Shown here piece after piece: positions 33,990 through 50,067 of a stretch of DNA of 64,000 bases (positions within the stretch are counted from its first letter, which is position 1; every line of letters begins with the position of its first letter). Under the pieces are notes generated by a model, which was not told where the DNA came from, did no database searches, and saw nothing but the letters and a program-made list of their open reading frames with translations. The DNA lies in the NCBI GenBank assembly GCA_965205505.1, contig CBDBHB010000008.1, positions 416,001 through 480,000 on the forward strand, in the 5' to 3' direction. The position numbers and the translations under genes are program-made. Origin of the DNA: Acidobacteriota bacterium. Its GTDB lineage: Bacteria > Acidobacteriota > UBA890 > WLXD01.

Positions 33990-34228
33990 CTGGCGGGCCT
34001 GGCGATCTCGGCAGCCTTCCCGGCGCCCGGTGGTAGGATCGTCGCCTCAGGAGCCGGACGGCGCGCACGCACCCGATAGCGCCGCTCCCAGCATGGACGT
34101 CGTCCGCGCCGTCGAGCCGCCCGTGAAGGACGGCATCTTGGACGAATCCAGCTGGGCGCTGGCCGATGTCGCCACCAACTTTCCTGCAACGCGAGCCGCA
34201 AGAAGGTCAGCCGGCAACCGAGCGTACC
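33990..34228 (+). pseudogene. Second DUF5916/CBM9-like N-terminal fragment, cut by an IS end
   Basis: 'EPPVKDGILDESSWALA..TNF' then 'QREPQEGQPATERT' in another frame. Confidence 0.65.
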
Positions 34229-34278
34229 TGACCTGACCCCACGGTTAGTACCACGTCTAATCTCAGTAACTCGGTGCT
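34229..34278 (+). mobile_element. Solo IS3-family left end
   Basis: TGACCTGACCCC...TAATCTCA matches the IS end at 63235. Confidence 0.7.
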
Positions 34279-34304
34279 TGACCCCACCCCGAAATCAGTA
34301 CCAG

Positions 34305-35135
34305 TCAGAGGTTTAGGATTCGGTGTTCCGAAGCCTCCGGTTGCCAGCCCCTGGCGAACTCCGTAGGAGTTCGATCGTTCAGTGAGCTGTGTGGTCTGTG
34401 GGTATTGTAATCAAGCCTCCAAGCCTCCAGTTTTCGGCGCGCGTCATCGATCGAGAAGAACAGGTTGGCGTTGAGGCATTCGTCGCGAAGCCGTCCGTTG
34501 AAACTCTCGATGAACGCATTCTCCACGGGCTTTCCCGGCCGAATGAACTCCAACTGCACGCCTCTTCGGTACGCCCAGGAGTCCATCGCCTGGGAGTAGA
34601 ATTCTGAGCCATTGTCGACGGTGATGACCCGTGGCAACGGCCCGGCAAACGACAGCCGCTCGAGTGCTCCAGCCACCGCCTTGCCGGTCATCGACACGCC
34701 CGGCTCAAGTAACGGACATTCACGGCTAAACTGATCGACCACCGTCAGCACCCGAAACGGCCGGCCACTCTCGAGCCGATCGGTCACGAAGTCCATGCTC
34801 CAGCGCTCGTTGGGCCGCTCTGCGGGCGGCAGCACAAGCCGTATGTGACTCGCCCGCTTGCGCCGTCGCTTTTTGGTCCGTACCTCCAGCCCCTCCTCTC
34901 GATAGATCCGATACACGCGCTTCTGGTTCACTACCCATCCCTCGCGGCGTAGCAACACGCACAACCTCCGATACCCGAACCGCGGACGCGCCGCGGCGAG
35001 CTCGCCAAGACGACGCCGCAGCACGGGGTCGTCCGTCCTTGTGCTCTGATACCGATGGCTGGTGCGCGACAACTCGATCAGCCGACACGCTCGACGCTCA
35101 CTGACACGGAACCCGTCCTGCAGGTACCGCACCAC
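34305..35135 (-). CDS. IS3 transposase OrfB (DDE)
   Basis: 'WSMDFVTD', 'VDNGSEF', '[23 protein letters not shown]'. Confidence 0.95.
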
Positions 35136-35155
35136 CTCGCGCTTGCGCGCCGGCT

Positions 35156-35422
35156 TTACACCTTTTTTGACAGCACCTCCTGGAGCATGTGCTTGTCCAA
35201 GCTCAGATCTGCCACCAGCTGCTTCAACTTCCGGTTCTCATGGCGGAGTTGTCGTAGCTCCCGAAGTTCGGCCACGCCCATCCCGGCGAACTTGCGGCGC
35301 CACGTGTACAACGTCTGCTCGCTGACGCCCAGCTTGCGACACACCTCCTTGATCGGCGTGCCCGCCTCAGCCTGCCGCAGCGCGTAGGCGATCTGCTCGT
35401 CCGTGTACCTCTTCCGCTTCAT
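35156..35422 (-). CDS. IS3 transposase OrfA
   Basis: 'RYTDEQI..LRQAEAG...[18 protein letters not shown]'. Confidence 0.95.
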
Positions 35423-35496
35423 CTGTCCTCCTGCTTGGAGGACGACGGTACACCGATTTCCTAAACATCAACCTGGCACCGTTTTCGGGGTTTGGG

Positions 35497-38400
35497 TCAC
35501 AGGCATGTTGCATCCGGTGCGGGGACGCCATATTGGTCCAAGAGCACCGACCAGCCGCGCTCGCCTTCCGCGCCTGTCGATGCTGCCACCGGCACGACTT
35601 GTCCGCGCGCCACATCGATCAGCAATTGCTGTACCTGGTGGCTGGCACGGTCGATCAACTCGTGATCCGGCTGGTTGAAATAGGACAGTAGGCAACGGTA
35701 ACAACCCCGCACACAAGCCTCTTGTTCACGTTCCTCTAGAAGGTCGGGGTCGCCTGCATCAACGGCCTCTTCGACGTTGTCGAAATGCATCAGTTCGAGC
35801 GCTTGTTTCGCGACCCGGTTCAGTGCATCCGGATCCTCAATCAGACGGCTCAGCACGCCAGCGCCACCCTCAGCCGCCTCGTAGGCCAGGACAGCGCGCC
35901 GGTCATCCCTGCCGGGTAGCGGCTCGCCCAGGATTTCGCCTTCCTCCAGCTGGAACACCACCGTGATGCCCCGCATCAAGGCATGCTGGAGCGTGGCGAT
36001 TGTCTTTGGGTCAAAGCGATCGGGATCTTCGAACCGAAGCAGGAGGGCGTTCTTGCGATCCCGGACGATCGGGACGATCCGCACCGGCCGCACCGCATCC
36101 GGTGGGATCTCCACTTCCGGGTCTTCGTCCTCGCTCTTGGCCCAGTATCCGGTACGGGGATCGATCATGAATCCGAGTACCGTCTTGTCGCGGCGCCGCT
36201 TCAGCCCCTTGTTGATCCGACTGATCTGCGCGCTGTTGGCGTATTGCAGCCTGATCAGGGGCGCGTCCGCGACCTGGAACTCAGCCTCGATGACCTCGAC
36301 ACGGCCGTGCTTTCGCGGCCAGGCAAAAACCGTCTGAATCTCGAAGCCCTGACGAATGCGTTCCTCGTTATTGGCTGTTATCCGCTCGGCCGGCGCCGCC
36401 TCCACATTATTGATCCTGAGTGTGCGTTTGACCGGCAGCGCGTCAGCCATCGCCTCGTTGCAAGCGTGACAGCGTTCGACCTCGCCGTCGTGCGCTGCCC
36501 CGCAGTTCGGGCAGATGGTGATCTCCCGCGTCGCTAGTTCCTGACCGTCGTCGGTCCGGGTCTCGGGAGGTAGCTTCGCCTTGACGACCCGGAACGCACG
36601 CCCTTCGTGATAAATGAGGCTGCGAGGACCGAACTCGGAGATGGCGAGAAACCGGGCGCGCTGCAGGAAAGAACCGGACGTACCCTCACCGGGAACGAAG
36701 GCGTATAGGGGCAGCCGCGGGAAATTGTAGCCGGGTAGAAAACCTTCCGTCGCCAGGTAACGGTACGAGTAAAAGTCCGATCCGTTGGTTGCACGGCCTT
36801 GTTCAAGAAGGGCGATCTGATCCGTGGCCCGCATCTGCGCGGCCTTGATCTTGCGCCGATCGGCTCCCGACAGCCCCGGTACTTGTGACTGGCTGTTGGC
36901 CTCGATCAGTTGTGTGCGGGCGGAGTGATAGAGTTCACGCCATCGGTCGAAGGCCCTGTCGAATTCCTCCGGCGACTGGGTGGCAACCTCCCTCACATAC
37001 TCGTCCGGATCCGCCATCCAGCCAGGTTTGCGACCGTCCAGCGACGCAAGAATTTGCTCCAGGACACGGCGCAGTGGTCCGCATGCCTTGTCGACCAGAC
37101 CGGGAGCCTGGATAACCTCGAGGATCTCGTCTTTCAGGGGGTATCCGTTCTTCTGTAGGTCGAGGATCTCGGGAATGTCGGCAGACAGGGGTAACTGCGC
37201 CGAGGCAAGCCAGATCGCCTGCAGATGAGAAGCGACCAGGTTCTTGTTGGTGATCTCGAGTGCCGGCGGGCGTACCACACCGGCCACCATGTCGATGCGC
37301 CGATCGAAGAAATACTGATCATGCGGCGACTGGGCCGCACAGTACGTGAAGATGACCGCGGCCTGCCCTGACCGCCCCGCACGTCCAGCTCGTTGCGCGT
37401 AGTTCGCAGGCGTCGGCGGCACATTGCGAAGATAAATCGCATTCAGCGCCGAGATGTCGACCCCTAGCTCCATCGTGGGCGTGCAGAACAGGGCCGGCAA
37501 TAGGTGTGCCGACTCGCCGCCGGCCTTGATTTCCGTCTCGCACTCGGCAATCCGCGCTTGATCGTCGGCTTCGAAGCGGAAGCGCCATTCCCGCCATTCC
37601 CGCTGCCTCTGGGTCACCTGGGCCGTATGCTCGCGGCTCTCTATCCCGAACAACGAACTGGTCCTCACCCCGTCCAGATCGGCCGCAATCCGCGTATACA
37701 GGTCGTGAAAGTAACGGTTCCCTACAGCGGCTTGCTCTCGAGCGGCCGGTCCTGGAATGAGTCGGACAGCCGAGGGCGATAGACACCACCCTGGAAAATC
37801 GCCCTCACTCGAAGCCAGCGTCACAAGCCCTTCATCGGCCAGAATGGCAAGGAGTTCGGAGACAAAGACGAGGTAGTCGCCCCTCCCGAGCTTCGTGCCG
37901 ATGACGCTCTCGCGGTTAAGCAGGCGCGCTATGCGTGACTGCGGGCCCGCGCGAAGGACCAGCTGTTCTTCACGCAGACTCGTGACTCTCTTGCCGGGGG
38001 CCTTCAGAAACAGGGTTGTACGCCCTCGCGGTCTTTCCTTGCTGTCGATCGCCCACGGAACCTGCAGGAGCGACCGTGATCTCTGTGCAACGGTGTCCAG
38101 AACGGCAAGATCGAGTGCCTCGGTACCGACGGCCAAGCCTTCGAGCATGGCCCCTAGCAGGATCCGGAGGACCTTTCTGCGAGCATCATGATCCAGGGAT
38201 CCGAGCTCAGGCAGAATGGCTGGGAACCTGTTTCCGTCCGCGGCCACGTCGCCGAGTCCCACGAAATCCACTTCGATCAACTTCAACCTCGACAGGCTCG
38301 GATTCGTGAAACGCCAACCCCGACGCAAATCGGTCCAGACCCGGTGCGCGAGCACCTTGGCCAACGACCGCTCTGCATCGCTGCGAACCACCGCCCCGGC

Positions 38401-40497
38401 CTCGGGGTTCAGCATCCAGTGCATCCGCAGCGCTGCGTTCGAGCCGACAAAACCCAAGGCCCGTTGAACACGGAAGCCGAACTCCTCTTCCCGCAGGCCT
38501 TCCTCGCCAGCGTCGACAACGGCGCGCAGCATTGCTCCGCGCAGCAGGCTCACGAACACAAAATCGTTGAAATGCCCCGCTTGAAGTGCAGCGTCCTGGC
38601 GATTGTCCGTGAAGCCAAGGAGTTTGCGCTTCTCCTGTGCAACGGCATGGGCAGGCTCGTTCAGCCATTCAAGAGCGCTCGATACGAGAAGCGTCGTCGC
38701 TGAGCTCCGACCTTCAGCGGTCAGGCCCGCAAGCTTGCTGCGCTCGCGCATGGCCGCTTGTGGCTCATCGAGACAGCAGGTGCAGAAGGCGAATTTGCCC
38801 GGAATGAACCAGAATGGCTCACCGTCTTCGGCAGCACGGCCGCTGCCCGCGACCGTCACCATCTTCGGCACACGGCTCTTGCGGTACGACCGGAGCTTGG
38901 GCTGGCCGTTGCTTTCTTGTGTCCAGCCTTCCGGAAACTTCTCGAGCTCCCCATCGAAGCGGTAGTCCGGATCACCAACTCCGGATGGCGTTAGGTACCC
39001 GGCGACGTCGGTTTCGTCGTCGCTGCCGATCGGGGTGTCGTCGATATTGCGCGGCACGAACAACGGGCGATCCTCGTGCTGCCTTCTCGTCACCACGTAG
39101 TACTCCTGACCGCAACGGCGGCAGAAGCGAATCGGATACAGCCGGGTCCCCGGAGAGTCGGGATCCTCGAGTTGTCCCTCCAGCAGAACGGTTCGCGGCT
39201 TCAACCGCAATGTTGCGAAAATGTCGCCCGCTCCTGCGATGAAGCGGTGCAGCTTGAAGGCCAGGAACGATTGGTCGCCGGTACCGCCTCGGTCCTTGTC
39301 AGGAAGGCTGACGCGGGTCAGGAAGCTCTCCAACACGGCACCACAGCGCTCTGGGTCGATACCGCTCGCCTGCGCCAGCGATTCGGTGGCCTCGCCAAAG
39401 GGCATCGGCCGTCGGCGCTTCAGGATCTGCGCGTCTTCCAGACCGAGCTCGAGCTCCGCCCAGACCGCAAGCGGGTGGGTGAACAGCTCGTCATCGGTCA
39501 GCCGCTCGGGAACGTCCCCCTCGAGCACGCCCGCAAGCTTCGGGGCAACATCCGCGAGTGCGAGGCGATCGTCCGTGGCCCGGCGCAGGGACTCATCGAT
39601 CACCGCATCCGGGCCGATCGGGACTCCGAACAGACGTGAAGCCACTTCCGAGACCGCCAAGGCCCTGCTGCCATCGCTTCCTTCGCTGGCCATCGTCGCT
39701 GAGGTCCCGATACAGATCGGAGCCTTGTCGGGCGTGCAGCGGTCACGCATACGCCGAACCAGAATGGCGACATCAGCACCTTGGCGGCCACGATATGTAT
39801 GCAGTTCGTCCAGGACGATGAACTCAAGGCCGTTGGCGTTCGCGATGACTTGAGAATCGACGGGAGCCTGCCGGGTCAGCAACAGCTCGGCCATCATGAA
39901 GTTGGTCAGCAGAACATCCGGCGGATGATCCGCGATCCACTGCCTTTCCTCCTGACCCTCCTGCCCGGTGTATCGCCGTACCACCGGCTTGAGGTTGTCC
40001 GGAAGGCCTGACTGATCAACGAATTTCTCGATTTCCTTCACCTGGCTGTTAGCCAAGGCGTTCATCGGATACACGATGATCGCGCGTGTCCTCGGCGCAT
40101 GCCCGGCCTTCCGCGCCCGGATGATCGCGTCCACGATCGGCACAAAGAAGCAAAGGGACTTCCCCGATCCAGTCCCCGTCGTCACAACGTAACTGTGTCC
40201 GGCGCACGCTTTGGCGATCGCCTGTCCCTGATGCTTGTGAAGCGTGATCGGCCTCGACCCAAACCGGAAGATCTGGGCCGTCTCCGGGCAAATGTCGCCG
40301 GAATCGACGAGATCGTCGGTCGTTGGTCCCGCTTCGTAATGAGGGTTCAGGGAAAGGAGGACATCCGGCCAGAAACGGCCCTCCTCATACTCGCGTGCAA
40401 TCGCCTCACGCAGGTCGGCTGCCCGAATCGTGCTGAAAGACCGCGAGAATGAAGCGTAGCTATTGACGATGTGGTGATCGAATTCGAAGGCTTTCAT
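35497..40497 (-). CDS. Large YprA-like DEAD/DEAH helicase with DUF1998 (anti-phage defence type); C-terminus clipped by IS3
   Basis: 'TGTGSGKS', 'YPMNALANSQ', 'DELH', 'SAT', 'TPTMELGVDI', 'QRAGRAGR', 'CVRGCYRCLLSYFNQ'; stop codon supplied by the IS IR. Confidence 0.92.
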   Translation of the reverse strand: MKAFEFDHHIVNSYASFSRSFSTIRAADLREAIAREYEEGRFWPDVLLSLNPHYEAGPTTDDLVDSGDICPETAQIFRFGSRPITLHKHQGQAIAKACAGHSYVVTTGTGSGKSLCFFVPIVDAIIRARKAGHAPRTRAIIVYPMNALANSQVKEIEKFVDQSGLPDNLKPVVRRYTGQEGQEERQWIADHPPDVLLTNFMMAELLLTRQAPVDSQVIANANGLEFIVLDELHTYRGRQGADVAILVRRMRDRCTPDKAPICIGTSATMASEGSDGSRALAVSEVASRLFGVPIGPDAVIDESLRRATDDRLALADVAPKLAGVLEGDVPERLTDDELFTHPLAVWAELELGLEDAQILKRRRPMPFGEATESLAQASGIDPERCGAVLESFLTRVSLPDKDRGGTGDQSFLAFKLHRFIAGAGDIFATLRLKPRTVLLEGQLEDPDSPGTRLYPIRFCRRCGQEYYVVTRRQHEDRPLFVPRNIDDTPIGSDDETDVAGYLTPSGVGDPDYRFDGELEKFPEGWTQESNGQPKLRSYRKSRVPKMVTVAGSGRAAEDGEPFWFIPGKFAFCTCCLDEPQAAMRERSKLAGLTAEGRSSATTLLVSSALEWLNEPAHAVAQEKRKLLGFTDNRQDAALQAGHFNDFVFVSLLRGAMLRAVVDAGEEGLREEEFGFRVQRALGFVGSNAALRMHWMLNPEAGAVVRSDAERSLAKVLAHRVWTDLRRGWRFTNPSLSRLKLIEVDFVGLGDVAADGNRFPAILPELGSLDHDARRKVLRILLGAMLEGLAVGTEALDLAVLDTVAQRSRSLLQVPWAIDSKERPRGRTTLFLKAPGKRVTSLREEQLVLRAGPQSRIARLLNRESVIGTKLGRGDYLVFVSELLAILADEGLVTLASSEGDFPGWCLSPSAVRLIPGPAAREQAAVGNRYFHDLYTRIAADLDGVRTSSLFGIESREHTAQVTQRQREWREWRFRFEADDQARIAECETEIKAGGESAHLLPALFCTPTMELGVDISALNAIYLRNVPPTPANYAQRAGRAGRSGQAAVIFTYCAAQSPHDQYFFDRRIDMVAGVVRPPALEITNKNLVASHLQAIWLASAQLPLSADIPEILDLQKNGYPLKDEILEVIQAPGLVDKACGPLRRVLEQILASLDGRKPGWMADPDEYVREVATQSPEEFDRAFDRWRELYHSARTQLIEANSQSQVPGLSGADRRKIKAAQMRATDQIALLEQGRATNGSDFYSYRYLATEGFLPGYNFPRLPLYAFVPGEGTSGSFLQRARFLAISEFGPRSLIYHEGRAFRVVKAKLPPETRTDDGQELATREITICPNCGAAHDGEVERCHACNEAMADALPVKRTLRINNVEAAPAERITANNEERIRQGFEIQTVFAWPRKHGRVEVIEAEFQVADAPLIRLQYANSAQISRINKGLKRRRDKTVLGFMIDPRTGYWAKSEDEDPEVEIPPDAVRPVRIVPIVRDRKNALLLRFEDPDRFDPKTIATLQHALMRGITVVFQLEEGEILGEPLPGRDDRRAVLAYEAAEGGAGVLSRLIEDPDALNRVAKQALELMHFDNVEEAVDAGDPDLLEEREQEACVRGCYRCLLSYFNQPDHELIDRASHQVQQLLIDVARGQVVPVAASTGAEGERGWSVLLDQYGVPAPDATCL

Positions 40498-40800
40498 GCA
40501 TCGTCCTGCAAATTGCGTCCTTCAATAGCGAGTAGGACGGTCATGAATCCTCAACGTTTTCGGCCGCCACACCTGACGCCGATACCAGTGTCAGACGCCG
40601 GCGCAGCACCCAACATTACCGGTTCCATCCCGCCGGCATGACCCACGGACATACGGAGCGCCTGACGCGATCGCAGCAGCCTCTTCAGGGGCGCAGCTAG
40701 AGCTTGTGCCGTTAGTGGACTCCGGTCGTTCGGTACCTTGTGGATTTCCCGGCCACTGGTTCGCCGAGACTGCCCGGTATCTCACGCGTCCCTTCGTCTT

Positions 40801-41070
40801 CTATCTCCTGGACCTGCCTGCATCTACGAGCTTCTCCAGCCCGTACACGATCGTCTGGTGGGCGAACTCCTGACCCTGTTTGCTGAGGCTACGCTGGATT
40901 TCGGCCACCGTCATCGACTCGCTGCTGCTGCTTAACAACTCCAGCGCAAGCTCGTAGCTCCGTCCCCGTTTCGGTTGCTGACGCGTCTTGCGTGTCTTCT
41001 TCTTGGCCGGCGACATCGCCTTGGCCGCCGTGCCCGGGTGCTGCAGCGTCGCCTGTTTCATGGATCCCAC
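40801..41070 (-). CDS. Small winged-helix-like protein
   Basis: 'LELLSSSSESMTVAEIQRSL...HQTIVYGLEKLVDAG'. Confidence 0.5.
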   Translation of the reverse strand: MGSMKQATLQHPGTAAKAMSPAKKKTRKTRQQPKRGRSYELALELLSSSSESMTVAEIQRSLSKQGQEFAHQTIVYGLEKLVDAGRSRR

Positions 41071-41277
41071 GGCGGCTTCCAGTGAACGCAGCTAACCTGG
41101 AATCAGGCCCCCCGAGAGCCACCACGATTCTCTTCCCCTTCCGGGGAACCTCGAACTATTTCTCGGATACTTCGGTTTTCATGGCCACGCTTCCGAGTTT
41201 GGCCAAGGAGGAGGTCAGTCAAGTCGTGGAGCTCGCGTGACGTGTTGAGAAGGGTCTTCGAAGAGGGTAGGAAGTGG

Positions 41278-43462
41278 ATGCGCCGCCTATTGTGCCGCCT
41301 GCTCTTCCGAGGGACCTCTCACAGTGAGGGCAATGAGGGCGGGACAGAGCCCGACGAGCCCCCAGTACCGTCGACGAAGCTCGACAGTCCATCGGCGACA
41401 TCGCATACAGCACCGCCGGAAAGCCCACACGGAAGGCGAGCTGCGCCTTCTCGTCCCCACGCGGCGATGGCGGATCCACTGACGGCAAGGGCGATACCGA
41501 CGGGCGTGATCCCGAAGACCGATGGCGGGATCTCGGCTCCCTCGAAGGGGCGGAAGAAAGTCGAGGAGCCAGAGCCTCGACCTCCCCGACGTATTCCAGG
41601 AAGACGAGACGGACCGACGCAGACTAGAACCGCAACTAAGAACGGGAGCGGAGGAAATCGTGTAGGACGTCCAACGTCCAAGCCCCGTCCGGAGCTGATC
41701 TGCCGCAGACCTTCGGGTTCAGTGCAATGGGAAGTACTGCTCTCCGCAGATGAAGAATCCCGAATTGCACTAGTGAAGCAGAACGGCGAGCCGCTCAGCC
41801 TGGGGGACGGGGGGGTGGTCTCTCACGTCGTTCGACGGTCGCCTGTCCATCGACTTCGAGCAAGGCCCATCGATCCACGTCTCGCTGTTCGACAAGAGCC
41901 CACTGATCTTCAAGCTGAACAAAGCTTGGACCGGGGATGGCCGAAACATCACCCACCTGACGAAGGGCCACTTCATCGTGATCGCGCCGGTGGAGTGGGT
42001 CCGTTCGGGCCATGTGCCCGTTGAACCGGATTGCTGCTCTGACTCGGCGTTCATGGCGCACTATTTCTTCCAGGGCGGCAGTGAGTCCACGGAAGAGCCC
42101 GGCGGCTTTTCGGGGCATGAGATCGACTCAAGCGCACCCGGATTCAAGTTGAGCGGAAAGCGCGTCTTCGACGATTCCGAGGAGGGTGACCTGTTCGTGG
42201 GAACTCCTCCGCAACTGAGTGATACGGACCGAGTGGTTTGGGCGCGGGTCGGAGAGGAAAGAGCACACGGCTGGAAGGGCCATAACTTCAAACCGTCCGA
42301 GCGCACCCTTGCCGAAGTCATGAATGCTCGGCAGGGTCGCTTCTTCGTTCGCGTTTACGATGAGCAAGGGGCAATGCTGGATGGTGCCCAGTTCCGATAC
42401 CTGCGCGGTCTCCGAGAGATTCGGGTGAACGGAGAGCCTTACGCCGAAGACACGCTGCTCGTGCCGAGCGCGACAGGCCATCCGCCGACAAGGGTGCGGT
42501 TCATCGGCGCCGATGGCTTACCTTTGCACGCCGCCTTGCCGCCAGGCGCAATGCCTATGGAGGACGGGACGGGTACTCTGATCGCCGAGCCGCACCCCGA
42601 CGCGGACGAGATTTCGTGTGCGCTGGAAGCCGATGGCGGCCGCGTGGAAATCGCTTTGCATTTGCCGCGCATCTGGTGGCGGATGGAGCGAGAAGGCGCC
42701 GAATGGGATGGCGAGTGGTGCAGCACACCGTTCAAGATGACGCGCCATGATTTCCGTGACCACGCCGACTCGAACGCGATACTGCGGTTGCGATCACCGA
42801 AGCGAATCAGGTCGGTTGTCGTGGGCTTCGGTGACGAGCCGTGCCTCAAGTACACGAGGAGGGACGATGAGTTCGTATTGCCTCTAGCCCACTTCGTCGA
42901 TCATGTCCAGGTCGACCATCGCCTGACCGAGGATGCCCTGTTCAACGTCCGATTTGATCAGGCCAACGACCGACGCGATCAGAGGCTGCTGACCTTGATC
43001 CGGATTCCCGCCGACCCGCCACCGGCAATTGTGTCGCTCACCTGTGAACCCGGGGCCCTCGCCGCCGGAGAGAAGTCGCTACTGTCTTGGGTGACCCGCA
43101 ATACTGACGATGTCCACGTCGTGATCGATCCCGACATCGGTGCGGTTGCGCCTACCGGAAGCCGTGAGATCGCACCCTTGGAGACAACGACCTACACGCT
43201 GCGGCTCACCGCGCCCGGGATGGAAGGCGTCACAAGGCGCGTCACCGTGCGAGTGTCACGCATGCAGCCAAGAAAGGTCCTCGCCAAGGTTCTGCGAGGG
43301 GGCGGCGGCTGGCGACGCGGCAGGGGCTTTAGCTGCGGAGAGTTGCGCACAGTCGACTTGACCGCGACTGAGGCGGCGCGGAGGTCGATCAGCATCGACA
43401 GACGTCGACGCAGCGTGCATCCGGCCAACATCAAGACCCTTCGGAAAGTGGCCCATGGCTGA
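41278..43462 (+). CDS. Helicase-partner protein (~728 aa once the frameshift near 41810 is corrected): beta-rich core, Ig-like domain, C-terminal eL13-like domain
   Basis: ORFs 41242-42024 and 41978-43462 join at a G homopolymer; 'PAIVSL...SLLSW...TTTYTLRLT'; 'GRGFSCGELR...ISIDRRRRSVHPANIKTL'. Confidence 0.8.
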
Positions 43463-46400
43463 CGTGCACGACATGGGCTCGTGGCCCGAAAGAATTCGCC
43501 AACGCTACGAGAGCTATCTGAAGACCTCGTTCTTCTTCAAGGATCCCGGCCTTCGCGCCTCGTTCCAGACCGCTCTGCAAGAGGAAGAAAGTCTGCTGAA
43601 GGGCAACTATCCGGAACCGGCTCGGCGCTTCCGCACGGGATTGAACGCGCGGGCGCTGGCGCGGGGGTGCTTTCCCGAGACCGCCACCGACCTGCTTCCA
43701 GCGCTGATCGACGCTCCGCTGTATGTGCACCAGGAACGAGCCGTCCGAGCCGTCCATCAGAAGCAGCGCAACATCGTGGTCGCCAGCAGCACCGCGAGCG
43801 GCAAGACCGAGAGTTTCCTGTACCCGATCCTGTTCGAGCTGTATCGCCAGCATCTAGCTGGCCAACTGCGCCAGCCTGGAGTCCGGGCCATGATCCTGTA
43901 CCCGATGAACGCGCTCGCCAACGACCAACGCGACCGTCTGGGCAACATCGGCCGGGATCTACACGAGGCGGGGTCGGGCTTCCGGCCCACTTTCGGGCAG
44001 TACATCGGCCAGACACCCCAGAACAGCCGAGACCGGTGGCGCAATACCGATTGGTGGGCCGAGAACCGCCTTCCGGGCGAAATGATCTTCCGCGACGAGA
44101 TGCGCGAGGCTCCGCCCCACATTCTGCTCACCAACTACTCGATGTTGGAGTACCTGCTCATCCGCCCTGACGACAGCCCACTGTTTGACAATGGCCGGGG
44201 CGAGCGCTGGCAGTTCATCGTGCTCGACGAAGCGCACCAGTACCGGGGTGCCAAGGGCATGGAGATGGGCATGCTGATCCGGCGTCTTAAGCAGCGGCTA
44301 CGCGACGGGGGTCGGCGGGATCCATTTCGCTGCATCGCCACGAGCGCGACTCTCTCCTCAGGCAAGAGCGAAGCCGACAGACACGCGGTCGTCGAGTTCG
44401 CCAACGAGCTCTTCGGGGAGTCCTTTTCGGCGCCCAGCATCGTCTTCAGCGAGTCGCAAGAAGCGGCGGCCGACGGGCCTCCGCGCCGATACCACGCCTT
44501 TCTGCGCGCTCTCGAGGGGGCGTTTCTAGTGCACAGAGACGGCACGGACGCTGTGGTGCTGAACCGTAAGGGCCAAGCCGGGGATGGCACCGCCGCAGAG
44601 CCGTTGGAAATCGCCTTGTGCAAGGAGTGCGGCCAGCACTATTACGTCGGTCGAAATCAGGGTGGCATGCTCCAGGAGGCCATTCGCGATCCCAGCCACT
44701 CGGACTTCGGCGTGGACTACTACCTGCCAACTGAGGATGGGGACCAACTTCTGTGTCGGCGTTGCGGTGCGCTGTCGGGCTCGACGCCGGCATGCGAATG
44801 CGGAGCGACGGTTCGCGTTAGACGGTGTGAGAACCACAAGGACCACGCCGATCAAATGAAGCGGTGCGAGGCGTGCCAGTATCGGCGCGGCGGCATCGGC
44901 GACCCGGTGCAGGAGATCGTGCACGGCTCCGACGGACCGAACGCTGTTATCGCAACCGCCCTGCACCAACTGCTCCCGGAGGGCCGGCGCAAGGTGCTGG
45001 CATTCGCTGACAGCCGCCAGGAGGCGGCGTTCTTCGCCTGGTATGCGGAGAATTCGTACGAGAAACTGCGCGACCGAAACCTCATATTGCGGGCGATCAA
45101 GGCGGGGCCGGTCGACTGTGGGGGGCTGTCCATCAGCGATCTCCAGAGCCGTTTGCTCGTCCAGTGGGAACGCGCCGGCCTGTTCAAGGCATCCGACACC
45201 GGCGAGAGCAGGAACCGGAAGGTGCTGACCGCCATTCTGCGGGAGGCGGTGACGGACGAAAGGAGGTTGTCCTTGAGCGGCGTCGGCCTCGTGAAGTGGT
45301 TCGTTGCCAGACCGGATTCGTTGCGTTTGCCGCAATCCATGCGACACTCGCCCTGGAGTTTCCAGGAGGAAGAGGCGCGCCGCCTGATCGGCTACCTGCT
45401 GGACGAGTTGCGCCCGCGCCGAGCCATGAATCTGCCGCCACGACCGTCGCTTGCATGGTCCGACGTATCGCTTTGGCCACAGCAGGCGTACTGCAAGGGA
45501 CCGCCGGGTAGGCGGCGGAGCGTTCTGCAATGGGGCGGTCCTCAGTCCGCAGTCGTCAGCCATTTCCTGCACCGGTTGCTCGCGGACTCCGGCTTGTCAG
45601 CGGAACAGAAGCGGTTGGAATCAACCGGGCTCATGGACGAGGTGTGGGAAGCGTTGCGGCATGATCGGGACCATCCAGTTCTCTCCCGCGGAACAGCGAA
45701 CGGAACGTTTCGGATCAATCCGGCTTGGCTGCGCATCAAGCCCGCCGGTCCCGGAGCAGTCTGGGAATGCGGCACATGCGCAACCTTGAGTAACTGCAAC
45801 ATCCGCGGTGTCTGTCCCCGCAATGGTTGCCCCGGCGACCTGACGCCCGCCAACCAAGAGCGTCTCCAGGAGAATCACTATCGGATTCTCTACGACGCCT
45901 TGGACCTTCCCCCGGCGCTGAGCGCGGAAGAGCATACCGCCCAGATTGACAGCGACGAGGCGCGCCGACGGCAGGACCGGTTCAAGAAGGGCAAGATCCA
46001 CCTGCTCAGCTCGTCGACGACGTTCGAGGTCGGCGTCGATCTCGGCGATCTCGATGCGGGGTTTCTGCGCAACGTGCCGCCGGAACCCTTCAACTACACG
46101 CAACGCGTGGGGCGGGCGGGGCGAGCGGCCACGCCAGGCCTGGCTCTGACGTACTGCCGCCGAAATCCCCATGACCTGTATCACTACGAAGATCCGGAAC
46201 ATCGGCTAATCCGTGGCGCGGTGCACCCGCCGCGCCTGCGGTTGACGAACCAGAAGATCGTCTTGCGGCACATGGTGGCCACTGCCCTGTCCGCCTTCTT
46301 CAGATCCGGCAGCAACGCCATGCGATTCAACCGTGTACAGGACTTGGTTGGGGACTGGCATAGCCCACGCGCAACGCTGGACCTGAGGGCGTTCTGCGAG

Positions 46401-46727
46401 AACAACAGCACATTGGCAGCGTCACTGCGCGAGATCGTTCCCGATCTCCTGCACAAGAGCACCGGACTCGCAGCGGACGCATGGACCGAGCAGGTTGCGG
46501 GGTCCGACAGTCGGCTTGCTGCCGTGGAGATTGAAGTGTGCTCGGACTATGTCGACATGGAGCGTAACCGGCAGGATCTGTTCGACCGACGCAAGGGCAC
46601 GGACAGAGTGGAAGACCGCATGAAGACCATTGCCCGCGAGCAGACGCTTAATTTCTTGTCCCGCAAGGCGGTCATCCCGAAGTACGGGTTCCCCGTGGAT
46701 GTCGTCGAACTCGATACTCGTCCCCGG
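43455..46727 (+). pseudogene. YprA/DruE-like DEAD/DEAH helicase truncated before DUF1998 (ORF runs on to 46994 in foreign sequence)
   Basis: 'STASGKTESF', 'YPMNALANDQ', 'LLTNYSMLEYLL', 'DEAHQY', 'STTFEVGVDLGDL', 'QRVGRAGR', 'IPKYGFPVDVVEL'. Confidence 0.88.
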
Positions 46728-47168
46728 GACGTCGTAAACCAGCCGATTGGCGTCGCCGAAGAAGTCGTTGGCCGTGAGCACCTGGGCGGCCGCGTTCAGC
46801 GCCTCGTTGTCGAGCAACACCGCGCCCAGGATCGAGCGCTCCACCTCGACGTTGTGCGGCAGCGCGCGCTCCTCGTGCCGTGTCCGGACTTGACGCAGCC
46901 GCCCCACTACGCGACCTCGCCTCGGTCGCCGACACGGGCGACGGTACCGTTTGAGTCCGTTGGGCTGTCGAATGTCCAGACCCCGGCCCCCTAGGGCCTC
47001 CAGAACCGCCTCCTGCGTGCATCCGGCGTGACAGTGCACCAGCACCTGCCCGTCGCGCTCTGTCGCGCTCAGGCTCGGGTTGCGGTCCTCGTGCGCCGGG
47101 CAGGGGTCCATGCCAGGTCCATTGGATCGACCCTCGAGCGGGCGGACGATCTGCTCCAGGCTGGCCAC
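46728..47168 (-). pseudogene. Satellite replication gene fragment: CHC2 primase Zn finger plus DnaB N-terminal domain
   Basis: 'CPAHEDRNPSLS...LVHCHAGC'; 'LPHNVEVERSILGAVLLDN...LTANDFF..ANRLVY'. Confidence 0.78.
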
Positions 47169-47169
47169 G

Positions 47170-47394
47170 TCACGTTGACTGCTGGGGAGGGGCAGGTTGA
47201 TCGCCCCCCGGCAGGGCGGTCGGACGGCTCGCTAACCACGCCTCGATGTCCGCCATCCGCCAGGCTACGGCACGGCGGCCGATGCGCACCGGACGGGGAA
47301 ACTCCCCCGCATCCATCGCAGCGTAGATCGCTGACCTGGAAAGTAGCGTGATCCGCTCGACTTCAGGACGCTTGATGAGGACTTGCTGCTCCAT
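47170..47394 (-). CDS. alpA: AlpA-family phage regulator
   Basis: 'LIKRPEVERITLLSRSAIYAAMDAGEFPRPVRIGRRAVAWRMADIEAW'; AGGAGG RBS. Confidence 0.92.
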   Translation of the reverse strand: MEQQVLIKRPEVERITLLSRSAIYAAMDAGEFPRPVRIGRRAVAWRMADIEAWLASRPTALPGGDQPAPPQQST

Positions 47395-47508
47395 GAGGAA
47401 CCTCCTTGGTTTTGGTGGTTCCTCCCACTGTGCAGGGGTACCTCTGGCCTGTCATGAGGTGCGAGTTTCCGAAAACTCGCCCCCACGGCCCGGGGGTGGC
47501 GCAGCCGA

Positions 47509-48168
47509 CTACCGTTTACCCTGCCATATGTCGCGCATGGTGTCGTACGTGCTCACACTGTGATTTCTCTCCTTGAGCACCCCGAGCACGATGTCGCAGG
47601 CGGACGGACGCTCCATCGCGTCGGTAGCCTCATTGCGCTCCGCATGCATGCCACACTCTGTCAGGACGTGGATCGCCCATCGGAGCACGTTATTTCGCTC
47701 GGCCATCTTGGGGGCCGGCCCCTGGCTGCCTTTGCCGCCTTTCGGAGGCGCACGCCGGCCATGCATCACGTCGCCCACCCAACGGTGCAGGGCTTGCCCG
47801 AGTGGACGTTTGCCTTCGGTGCGCGCGAACGTCCACGCCAGTGCGTCCCAATGTACGGGGTTAGTACGTGATCCTTCGGTAGTGGATTCGATATCCTCGC
47901 GCGGGGTGTTGTCTTCGCCCCGAAGAAACAACGCAGCGTACATCCATACGTTGTAGTTGTGGGCGATCTCTGGGTTTCTCCACGACGGGTCCAGGTCGAG
48001 CCACAAGCCCACGAGAGCGCGCGCATCGTCGTTGGAAATGCGCTCTTTCTGCTCAATGAATCGTGTCCGGTGCTTATGGTGCAGCTTGGCGAACTCATCG
48101 TTCCGGGATTTGTCCAGGACGGCACGCACAGGCAACACTGGTTGCCTCGCGCGCTCTTTTTCACCCAT
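47509..48168 (-). CDS. Hypothetical protein between integrase and alpA
   Basis: Open frame in the variable slot of P4-like elements; no recognised motif. Confidence 0.55.
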   Translation of the reverse strand: MGEKERARQPVLPVRAVLDKSRNDEFAKLHHKHRTRFIEQKERISNDDARALVGLWLDLDPSWRNPEIAHNYNVWMYAALFLRGEDNTPREDIESTTEGSRTNPVHWDALAWTFARTEGKRPLGQALHRWVGDVMHGRRAPPKGGKGSQGPAPKMAERNNVLRWAIHVLTECGMHAERNEATDAMERPSACDIVLGVLKERNHSVSTYDTMRDIWQGKR

Positions 48169-48472
48169 GAGGCAGCACCGGCACGATGGTCTGGATCGGG
48201 GCGGGCAACCTGGAGTGCGGCCCGGGCCCACTGATCGATGGGGACAGCAGCATCAGGCCCAGGATGACGGCCGGAATCAGCGTCAGTGCACGGCCCGAAA
48301 GGTTGATCCTGGGCGAGCGGAGATCGCCCATCCGCACGTTGCCGAGCTCACCTCTGTCCATATCATCTCTCCGTAGGCACGGGGGCGGTGGGGTAGACAC
48401 GTCTTCAGGGTAGCGTGCGTGGCCGTGTGCCAACCCACTTCAGCAGGCAGGGAACCGACCCGGTACTGCTCC

Positions 48473-49510
48473 CTAGACAGGGCGCAGCATCGGCACCACC
48501 TTGCCGCCCTCAGCACTCAGGTAAGCGGCCCAGTCTTCCATCAGCTTCCGGCGCCGCTCCAGCAGGTCCGAGCGCGCATAGGCCGCCTCGGTCGGGTCGC
48601 GCACCGCATGCGCCAGCGCCGCCTCCATGACCGCCCGCGGTGCGTTGGTGCACTCCGCCGCCCAGTCCCGGAACGATGAGCGAAACCCGTGCGGTACCGC
48701 TTCAATACCCAGCTGCCGCAGCACCCGGGAAAGCGTTGCGTCCGCCAGCGGCCTGCCGGCCCGTGCGCCGGGAAACACCAGCCCCTCGCCATCCCTGAGC
48801 CCCCGCGCCTGGCGCAGGATCTCCATTGCCCGGCCCGATAGCGGTACCCGGCGCCGCTTGCGGTGCCGTGGCAGCGCCTGGGTGATCGCCTCACCAGCCG
48901 GGTTGTCGCCACGGTACCCCTGCGCCATGGCCCACTTCATCACCGCACCGATGCGCGCCCGCACCCGCCGTGCGGTCTCGGCCTTGTCATGCCAGATCGG
49001 ACCCAGTACCTCCAACACCTCGGCCGTCGTCACCTCCGACACCGGCATCTCACCGATGCGCCCGTACGCATAGGTGCGCAACTCCGTTTTCCATTGCGCC
49101 GCATACTTGGCGTTGCGCCACCCGGGGCGGTGCATCTCATACACCTTGGCCGCTGCTTGCGCGAACGTCGGCATGCCCTCGGCCCGGCGCTTGTCTGTCA
49201 GCGGGTCACCGCCGGCACGGGCCAGCTTGCGGTTGGCAAATGCCACCTCGCGCGCCTCCGACAGCGACACCAAGGGGTAGCCTCCGAGACCCAGTTCCCG
49301 GCGACGGCCCTGGATCACGATCCGCTGTACCCAGCTGCGCGCTCCGCTCGGGATCACGTTCAGGTACAGGCCGTGTCCATCGCAGTACCGGCCCGGCTTC
49401 ATTACCGTGCGTACGAACGCCGCCGACAGGGCCCGCTCCGGGTGCTTGCCGCTCTTGCGCCGAGGGCTGGGTTTCGGTGCAGTTGCCTGCGCATCGGACA
49501 TATTATGCAT
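48473..49510 (-). CDS. P4-like (IntA) tyrosine integrase with an in-frame internal deletion
   Basis: Arm-binding 'GRYCDGHGLYL...RRELGLGGYP.VSL', 'PHGFRSSFRDWAAE', 'ALAH...AAYARSDL'; segment with the first catalytic Arg missing at 'HRKR|RRVPLS'. Confidence 0.9.
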   Translation of the reverse strand: MHNMSDAQATAPKPSPRRKSGKHPERALSAAFVRTVMKPGRYCDGHGLYLNVIPSGARSWVQRIVIQGRRRELGLGGYPLVSLSEAREVAFANRKLARAGGDPLTDKRRAEGMPTFAQAAAKVYEMHRPGWRNAKYAAQWKTELRTYAYGRIGEMPVSEVTTAEVLEVLGPIWHDKAETARRVRARIGAVMKWAMAQGYRGDNPAGEAITQALPRHRKRRRVPLSGRAMEILRQARGLRDGEGLVFPGARAGRPLADATLSRVLRQLGIEAVPHGFRSSFRDWAAECTNAPRAVMEAALAHAVRDPTEAAYARSDLLERRRKLMEDWAAYLSAEGGKVVPMLRPV

Positions 49511-49614
49511 CCCCCTCTCATTCCGCCATTAAAGGCGGGAATGTAGCGGATTGTCCGGGAACACGCAAGATGGACGAATACTCGTAACTGTCTGACTCTA
49601 CTGATGCTTAGGGA

Positions 49615-50067
49615 CTAATAGGTCAACTCAGGAATGCACCGGATCTGAACGATGGCAGAGATGCCGAGGGCCAGCGACACGATCGCCGTGAGCGAGAACC
49701 CGGGGCTCTGGCGCAGTCGCCGGAGCGCGTATCGCAGATCGCGCGCCAGCACGTAGACAATCGCTTCGCCGGTACGGCCCGAGCGTTCGTCCATGGCGCG
49801 CGACCGGCGGGCGGAGCGCTTGGCGCGGCGGATCAGGTCGGCGGCAATATCGTCGCTGCCGAAGTCCTCCAGCAGATCGTCGACGCTGCGCCCGGACGCC
49901 AGCCCGTCGTCGAAGTGGGCGATCAGCTCGCGCGCCACGTCGACACGCTCGACAGGACGGAGGCCCGGTGACGAAACGGCATTGCGCACGCGTTCGCGCA
50001 GCAGCTCTGGCAACCCGGATGACTCCAGTAGGCGCGCTACATCGCCCAGTTTTTGTTGCATGATCAT
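49615..50067 (-). pseudogene. ADOP permease N-terminal fragment
   Basis: 'ELIAHFDDG', 'RDLRYALRRLRQSPGFSLTAIVSLALGI' cut near 49655. Confidence 0.82.

Follow-up and report, generated by a model that had tools for sequence, protein, structure and literature searches.

A 64,000-nucleotide stretch of contig CBDBHB010000008.1 from an Acidobacteriota bacterium (assembly GCA_965205505.1), hereafter the window, carries two adjoining genes that belong to a widespread and hitherto undescribed two-gene module with a probable role against phages. The upstream gene encodes a partner protein that ends in a tail resembling ribosomal protein eL13, and the downstream gene encodes a helicase related to DruE of the Druantia anti-phage systems. 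The two genes are conserved and translationally coupled as a module with a DruE-family helicase at its core, and the copy in the window is a pseudogene pair, damaged in three ways. On balance, the locus probably represents a mobile, Druantia type III-related module in inactivated form, with the partner standing in the place of DruH. In the following, G000 denotes the window's genome, C8 the contig to which the window belongs and C9 another contig of this genome.

A conserved partner-helicase pair and its distance from Druantia

A scan for the partner that took one genome per species yielded 53 loci, all in metagenome-assembled genomes (MAGs). Their record titles name Thermodesulfobacteriota, Acidobacteriota classes, Limisphaerales, Gemmatimonadota, Rhodothermales, Latescibacterota, Binatia, Chloroflexota (SAR202 and Dehalococcoidia), Spirochaetia, and Alpha- and Gammaproteobacteria. 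A helicase of the window type lies downstream on the same strand, starting within about 900 nt, at 49 of the 53 loci. Of the other four, L027 is a 2.4-kb contig, L041 and L053 hold partner fragments, and at L011 a different open reading frame (ORF) of 408 codons comes next. A first analysis of the window, made from its letters alone (the sequence-only reading), had asked whether partner homologues always precede a DUF1998-type helicase; they do so at the 49 loci but not at L011, the other three being a short contig or fragments.

The same linkage is seen from the side of the helicase. A helicase profile, used independently of the partner query, pulled 80 metagenome loci, and the partner lies upstream in all eight of those that combine a score of at least 1549 bits on the helicase hidden Markov model (HMM) with available upstream sequence. 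The count becomes 49 of 49 high-scoring helicases if the genome loci, which had been chosen through the partner, are added, whereas the partner precedes none of the 49 testable DruE-like helicases that score 956 bits or less on the clade HMM. The helicase start overlaps the partner stop by 8 nt (ATG/GTG-NN-stop) in 34 of 65 related loci. All-against-all clustering of ORFs leaves the partner and the helicase as the only genes common to the loci, with the best flanking cluster present in seven of them. The translational coupling and conserved pairing proposed from the window alone are borne out by these counts.

Intact module helicases are 1396–1426 residues long. Three out of three intact relatives contain DEAD, Helicase_C and MZB domains (the latter at residues ~1297–1378) and no nuclease domain, and the passage from a superfamily 2 (SF2) core into OB-CON-DUF1998 with a four-cysteine cluster places them in the YprA/MrfA-like family. 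PADLOC models of DruE1 and DruE3 match the module helicases at E 1e-148 to 1e-160 (~470–530 bits), and the earlier description of the window's helicase as YprA/DruE-like agrees with its best PADLOC match (Table 1).

The distribution of the module is patchy. We found no full-length partner in any of 40 related genomes searched, including four of the same genus, and five of the 40 gave only weak matches to Ig-like (immunoglobulin-like) domains. The helicase clade was found in one of 401 genomes of the phylum, namely the window's own, where the partner is a single-copy gene. On the wider scale, 461 of 8000 scored candidates are partner relatives at E<=1e-3, and the partner profile matched 14200, 5332 and 1370 proteins among 1.84 billion representatives at E<=1e-3, 1e-10 and 1e-30, respectively; the counts are upper bounds, as Ig-repeat giants, P0127 for example, score too. 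In the ESM Atlas, the best score for the partner core was 0.77, under the level of a usable lead.

Two further groups of helicases were observed among the collected loci. A sister clade (L079, L082–L084, L087, L088 and L113) has helicases of ~1470–1590 residues that are ~42% identical; the diverged partner cores upstream of them end in helical segments or in repeats of C2H2-like zinc fingers and not in eL13. At L090–L110 and similar metagenome loci, DruE-like helicases scoring 640–960 bits on the clade HMM are each preceded by an ORF of ~1070–1090 residues, which neither the partner profile nor a two-sequence DruH HMM matches; these ORFs are probably other DruH subfamilies.

Two canonical Druantia type III loci of the window's own phylum, L065 and L066, were used for calibration. 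Their DruH proteins (1135 and 1144 residues) match 9–11 PADLOC DruH3 models at E 1e-65 and 1e-109, and their DruE proteins (1771 and 1697 residues) score 1870–2017 bits on DruE3 in one stretch and 516–582 bits on DruE1. By comparison, the intact module helicases score 492–533 bits on DruE1 and 334–500 bits on DruE3, in two to three stretches, and none gives an end-to-end DruE3 match at the level of accepted members. By these bit scores, the distance of the module helicase from any described DruE type is similar to that between the types themselves. For the partner, PADLOC returned no match at E<=1 in six of six intact homologues and none at E<=0.01 for the two pieces in the window, and hhalign of a 69-sequence partner profile against the two canonical DruH proteins gave probabilities of 0.2% and 2.3%. 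The sequence of the DruH structure 9tud escaped the partner profile at E<=1 but was recovered with canonical DruH at E 1e-40. Judged by its sequence, the partner is not a recognisable Dru subunit, which agrees with the sequence-only reading.

Bell et al. 2025 (10.1101/2025.09.15.676423), in the portions available, define ARMADA, BRIGADE, TALON and Druantia III-A/III-B, describe a distinct 'type III-like' branch that is most often without a nuclease, and include repair helicases in the YprA family. The terms 'L13', 'ribosomal' and 'DruH' are absent from the main text of that paper, whose supplementary tables may list the clade. The module resembles Druantia III-B or 'type III-like' systems (M. 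smegmatis MSMEG_1253/1254, L065 and L066) in having two genes with the partner directly upstream of and overlapping the helicase, a DruE-family DEAD, Helicase_C and MZB protein often without a nuclease, and a largely Ig-like partner. It differs in the size of the helicase (~1400 versus 1667–1771 residues), in its score on DruE3 (~500 bits in two to three stretches versus 1870–2017 bits in one) and in the partner, which has 550–980 residues versus ~1130 in DruH, ends in eL13-like or other ribosomal-protein modules and is unmatched by DruH models. The two-gene operon is that of type III, but its first gene is not identifiable as DruH.

According to the available parts of two preprints (10.64898/2026.05.13.724758, 10.64898/2026.05.12.722862), DruE of E. 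coli is a 3'-5' helicase acting on single-stranded DNA (ssDNA), and DruH is an Ig array with a C-terminal ssDNA site; in the second, DruH comprises a globular head and six Ig-like subdomains, and its ssDNA site is formed jointly by Ig5 and a C-terminal domain. The modelled partner and E. coli DruH appear alike in this general build, which does not imply homology. With this Druantia III-A system the module likely shares the principle of an ssDNA-loading 3'-5' helicase combined with an Ig-array partner that carries a C-terminal nucleic-acid site, whereas the PLD domains of III-A are absent from the module and its partner profile misses 9tud at E<=1. DISARM DrmAB, ARMADA and Dpd share the SF2 core and OB-CON-DUF1998 canopy. 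The module has no conserved adjoining BrxHII-like helicase, PglX methylase or DrmC and falls outside ARMADA and DISARM, and the PADLOC models of DrmA, DpdJ and BrxH give its helicase scores far below those of the DruE models.

Partner build and exchangeable ends

Partners have 550–980 residues. The AlphaFold2 model of P0006, an intact 711-residue homologue that is 83% identical to the window's partner, has a predicted local distance difference test score (pLDDT) of 80.7 and consists of a disordered N-terminus of ~120 residues (pLDDT <50 at residues 1–82 and 96–120), an all-beta region at 127–655 and a short strand-helix tail. The last 153 residues of the window's partner were modelled at pLDDT 91.6 as an Ig-like sandwich followed by the eL13-like tail. 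Fold searches with the P0006 model returned tandem Ig-like arrays (titin, contactins, alpha-2-macroglobulins) with low TM-scores and middling Z-scores; Foldseek and VIA-align on the 711-residue model gave generic Ig arrays and eL13 alone among the matches listed. The structural library covers releases to 2026-04-08 and may not hold 9tud, so the absence of 9tud from the matches listed has no bearing on whether the partner and DruH are related in fold.

The likeness of the tail to eL13 is real. The NCBIfam model of archaeal L13e (NF008914) matches the tail at E 5e-10 to 4e-14 in five of five homologues, with 38.8–52 bits, below the curated cut-off of 96. Pfam PF01294 was found in six of six intact homologues, of which four pass the cut-off (26.9–32.6 bits) and two fall below it, and the tail in the window scores 22.8 bits against a cut-off of 24.9. 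Searched against the PDB, the partner profile hit eL13 chains alone at E<=1, the best being 9e6q_AH from Pyrobaculum calidifontis (E 6.6e-10), and the tail has the fold of the conserved eL13 core. In the module this domain is only the C-terminal tail of a bacterial protein of ~750 residues, scoring below the curated cut-off in NCBIfam and often in Pfam. The architecture read from the window's letters, with a disordered N-terminus, a beta-rich core, an Ig-like domain and an eL13-like tail, agrees with the models, fold matches and family scans. That reading also knew of no described partner with an eL13 domain, and we found no literature link between L13e/eL13 and DUF1998 or anti-phage systems. 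To our knowledge, eL13 is absent from bacterial ribosomes.

What does not hold is the role of eL13 as the defining feature of the partner. A local tail HMM places an eL13-like tail at the extreme C-terminus of 216 of 248 collected family proteins, 40 of 52 partners from genome loci and four of 13 from metagenome loci, and other domains occupy this position elsewhere. Above the Pfam cut-offs, both domains of ribosomal protein S5 form the tail in L050 and P0177 (and in L089 by eye), S17 in L034 (95 bits) and S6 in P0025 (30 bits), and NusB stands ahead of the eL13 tail in P0009 and P0018. The tail of P0245 gives a weak HhH match, and at several loci we read from the sequence, not from family scans, helices rich in Lys/Arg, helix-turn-helix (HTH) plus basic tails and, in the sister clade, C2H2-like zinc fingers. 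The eL13 domain is the commonest of several interchangeable C-terminal modules.

The N-terminus is exchanged as well. Pfam finds sigma-70 regions 2–4 in place of the disordered head in L049 and P0264–P0267, all four of the latter keeping the eL13-like tail. These sigma-70 variants (L049 7277–11350 and P0264–P0267) reach ~1300–1360 residues; L078 1–4014 (1338 residues, with a degenerate tail) resembles them by length and tail only. The L049 and L078 variants are followed by the helicase downstream. No partner fused to a DruE-like helicase was found among the longer family proteins. P0262 and P0263 instead combine the partner core with a RecQ-like helicase, whose C-terminus reads as phosphoribosyltransferase-like.

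The decayed copy in the window

Table 1. Features of the partner-helicase locus and its surroundings, in positions of the window
Feature	Position	Strand	Basis or remark
Second YprA-family helicase, 1666 residues (DEAD, Helicase_C, MZB)	35497..40497	-	weak PADLOC match to DruE1, 254 bits; outside the conserved pair
Partner gene, whole	41278-43462	+	~727 codons, broken by frameshift
Partner 5' part, frame 1	41278..41815	+	disordered Pro/Ser/Arg-rich N-terminus and start of conserved core (RPELICRRPSG...)
Frameshift site, run of seven G	41809..41815	+	+1 shift of the partner reading frame
Partner 3' part, frame 2, stop codon included	41816..43462	+	beta-sandwich core, last Ig-like domain, eL13-like tail; from P0005 and relatives
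Last Ig-like beta-sandwich domain of partner	43025..43258	+	strands at residues 9-86 of the 153-residue model; Ig-domain matches
eL13-like C-terminal tail of partner	43274..43459	+	GGGWRRGRGFSCGEL...IDRRRRSVH...
Helicase start / partner stop overlap, 8 nt	43455..43462	+	ATGGCTGA
Helicase gene, homologous part	43455..46730	+	best PADLOC match DruE3 PDLC00037, E 1e-115
Helicase stretch duplicated at 100% identity, 651 bp	46081..46731	+	copy at G000:C9:1274855-1275505, where the gene runs on to the MZB-bearing end
DnaB-N-like ORF fragment of repeated element	46422-47168	-	ORF/domain scan
Repeated element cutting off the helicase, 2.95 kb	46732..49679	.	99.86% identical copy at C9:2186510-2189457, several partial copies
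P4-type integrase, N-terminal half, in repeated element	48473-49510	-	no catalytic-domain match

In the ORF listing, the partner appears as two ORFs on the same strand, at 41242/41278–42024 (frame 1) and 41978–43462 (frame 2). The ATG at 41278 opens frame 1 (MRRLLCRLLFRG...), and the intact homologue P0006 begins there too. Frame 1 reads ...NGEPLSLGDGG before the run of seven G, and frame 2 continues after it with WSLTSFDGRLSID... (WSLTSFDG...). The flanking residues (LSLGDGG / WSLTSFDG) agree with ...LSLGNGGWPLTSF... of P0006, where the stretch is ...NGEPLSLGNGGWPLTSFAGRLSID, and a single extra G in the run breaks the reading frame. The sequence-only reading had given a protein of ~728 residues with a frameshift near 41810 and an 8-nt overlap with the helicase start; all three are recovered here, the overlap being formed by CCCATGGCTGACG, in which the helicase starts with the ATG at 43455 and the partner stops with the TGA at 43460–43462.

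The helicase ORF (43455–46994) has 1179 codons, with homology ending at codon 1092. Residues 1–1092 are 85% identical to the 1400-residue helicase of locus L005, the likeness stops exactly at 46730, and from there up to 46994 the ORF runs into the repeated element. DEAD and Helicase_C domains are present, and a domain scan of the helicase at this locus found no DUF1998/MZB. The earlier remark that the helicase lacks DUF1998 is therefore correct for the locus but not for the genome, since the MZB-bearing 3' part survives on C9. Helicase residues ~876–1400, ending in the MZB cysteine motif (CxC...CxxC), are encoded at G000:C9:1273932-1275506 within an ORF of 580 residues (L060 1498–3240, minus strand) that joins 57 unrelated residues to the helicase part and lies directly downstream of a C-terminal fragment of a tyrosine recombinase. 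The split, with the core on C8 and the canopy-bearing piece on C9, superficially recalls DrmA/DrmB of DISARM. In addition, motif I of the window's helicase is ASSTASGKT, with the otherwise conserved glycine replaced; ATGTASGKT is found in 40 of the 45 long ORFs of related loci that fit the motif pattern, three of these 45 being unrelated neighbour helicases. With a frameshifted partner, a helicase broken off at codon 1092 by the repeated element and a substituted glycine in motif I, the system as encoded cannot function.

We regard it as improbable that these lesions are assembly artefacts and that the partner is in frame and the helicase whole in the organism. The frameshift does fall in a homopolymer run, and the short-read graph is ambiguous: a Logan unitig covering 46086–46721 stops at both borders of the 651-bp repeat, and none of the Logan contigs listed bridges 46731/46732, and cover is thin (depth 3–7), so that this junction is neither confirmed nor refuted. 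Against an artefact, independent Logan contigs of public runs equal 41063–43579 (2517 nt) and 41000–42070 with 0 differences and 0 gaps across the same G run, so the extra G is probably real, although the runs may derive from the sample used for the window's own assembly. Both junctions lie deep inside megabase contigs, one X1 contig (Logan) has the C9-type left junction at 46081, and the motif I glycine has been lost as well.

The satellite genes reported beside the pair belong to the 2.95-kb repeated element, with its DnaB-N-like fragment and P4-type integrase half. Compared with other copies in the genome, the copy in the window is without 216 bp at 48851/48852, inside the integrase ORF. 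No tRNA, as a candidate integration site, was found in the window. Directly upstream of the partner lies a short repeat (~40772–41220) with an 84.7% match to C8:1082131-1082469, and Logan word depth is 118–122 at 41000–41220 versus 3–7 across the partner gene. The second YprA-family helicase is divergent from the partner gene and has no counterpart in related loci and no partner gene on its own strand. An IS (insertion sequence) copy abuts its stop codon. An IS3-family element at 34228–35499 (rve, rve_3 and HTH_21 transposase matches) has more than 20 copies at 98–99.9% identity on C4, C5, C8 and C9.

At 46 related loci, 22 of the 89 ORFs that directly flank the pair, spread over 18 of these loci, match PADLOC models at E<=1e-8, a count made without background control. 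They include type I restriction endonuclease, methyltransferases, BrxA, DrmB, RmrA, SoFic, a DpdF-like helicase and PDC candidates; DrmB or a methyltransferase is an occasional neighbour only.

Candidate function and competing readings

The best-supported reading is that, in a two-gene defence module like Druantia type III, the place of DruH is taken by an Ig-array protein, either unrelated to it or diverged beyond recognition, whose nucleic-acid-binding end can be exchanged. The first gene (~700–900 residues) encodes an N-terminus that is variable or disordered, a conserved series of Ig-like domains and a small end module, mostly a copy of the conserved rRNA-binding core of eL13, for which nucleic-acid binding is predicted from the domains. 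The translationally coupled second gene (~1400 residues) encodes a compact, nuclease-free DruE/YprA SF2 helicase that has zinc modules and an OB-CON-MZB canopy. By analogy with E. coli DruE, this helicase may load on exposed ssDNA of an invader and unwind it in the 3'-to-5' direction, while the partner, replacing DruH, may scaffold through its Ig array and sense or hold the substrate by binding ssDNA or RNA through its end module. This division of labour is proposed from the characterised system, whose mechanism is also treated in the available part of PMC13316683, and a role in defence is suggested by the helicase family and the genomic context. The proposals of the sequence-only reading, in which an RNA-binding domain senses or targets RNA or ribosomes or loads the helicase, are likewise conjectural.

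Several observations weigh against this picture. The defence role is drawn from family membership and context, and the PADLOC count of neighbours, besides having no background, includes promiscuous models such as those for methyltransferases and PDC candidates. Ends taken from ribosomal and transcription proteins would suit a function at the ribosome or on RNA no less than DNA binding, and E. coli DruE showed no ssRNA binding in the available parts of the two preprints cited above for it. At L011 (11640–12866), the 408-residue ORF, which is not the module helicase, comes after an intact eL13-tailed partner and shares the 8-nt overlap with it. As regards mobility, a tblastn search with partner P0033 found no match in 72,556 plasmid records, 71 pattern matches on viral contigs included none related to the partner, and every one of the genome loci comes from a MAG.

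The partner could instead be a true DruH, extremely diverged and shortened, which would make the module Druantia III-B ('type III-like') and not a new variant. The gene order, the start/stop overlap and the build, with a variable head, an Ig-like array and a C-terminal nucleic-acid site, fit the description of DruH in the available preprint text, and the branch reported by Bell et al. as most often nuclease-free would suit the helicase. However, we consider this possible but unlikely, given that none of six intact partners matches a DruH model where canonical DruH of the same phylum matches 9–11, that the profile comparisons by hhalign and against 9tud fail, that the partner is shorter than DruH and that the module helicase reaches only ~500 bits on DruE3 models. 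Another role altogether, as an RNA- or ribosome-associated or a DNA-repair helicase system like MrfA/YprA, is very improbable: the YprA family does hold repair helicases, by the available text of Bell et al., and the tails are rRNA-binding domains, but the patchy distribution, the variable flanks, the frequent position beside defence genes and the decay of the window's copy without an obvious replacement speak against it, as do zinc-rich insertions in the helicase of the kind that Bell et al., in the same portions, describe for the defence branch.

The tails themselves raise the idea that the partner is a modular infection sensor linking a Druantia helicase to the gene-expression machinery, its ends docking on ribosomes, nascent rRNA or RNA polymerase or baiting phage factors, which we rate as rather unlikely. 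A related version, in which the end modules tether the partner to the host ribosome or RNA polymerase or mimic host proteins attacked by phages, with the helicase as the effector, is quite unlikely. The swaps invite both: every exchange assignable by Pfam (S5, S17, S6, NusB, sigma-70) is a component of translation or transcription, sigma-70 regions 2–4 head five partners, four of them also eL13-tailed, and pull-downs reported in the available parts of the preprints (10.64898/2026.05.13.724758, 10.64898/2026.05.12.722862) found DruH associated with host proteins and released on infection. Yet the commonest tail cannot mimic a host protein, because eL13 is not bacterial, and the C2H2-like zinc-finger, HTH-plus-basic and Lys/Arg-rich helical tails are generic nucleic-acid binders. 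A sensor or tether would fit the ribosomal, NusB and sigma-70 swaps and would not fit the zinc-finger and basic tails or an eL13 domain foreign to bacteria. The Ig-array protein with an exchangeable nucleic-acid-binding end remains our preferred view of the partner.

What the non-helicase partner does is the largest gap in present work on Druantia, and the 2026 preprints (10.64898/2026.05.13.724758, 10.64898/2026.05.12.722862), as far as their available text goes, differ over a direct contact between DruH and DruE and over what DruH senses. One conserved core combined with many small nucleic-acid-binding ends amounts to a natural domain-swap series, which makes the role of the partner directly testable through its tails. 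Since defence-finder models see the helicase and not the partner, such pairs would be scored as incomplete Druantia, and the finding of all instances in uncultured bacteria suggests that isolate-based catalogues missed the module. It is already unusual that a bacterial protein should carry the core of eL13, a ribosomal protein that bacteria lack. If the partner were indeed an infection sensor, defence would be triggered by phage effects on translation or transcription, not by DNA ends alone, and a ribosomal protein domain of the eukaryotic and archaeal type would have been recruited into bacterial immunity.

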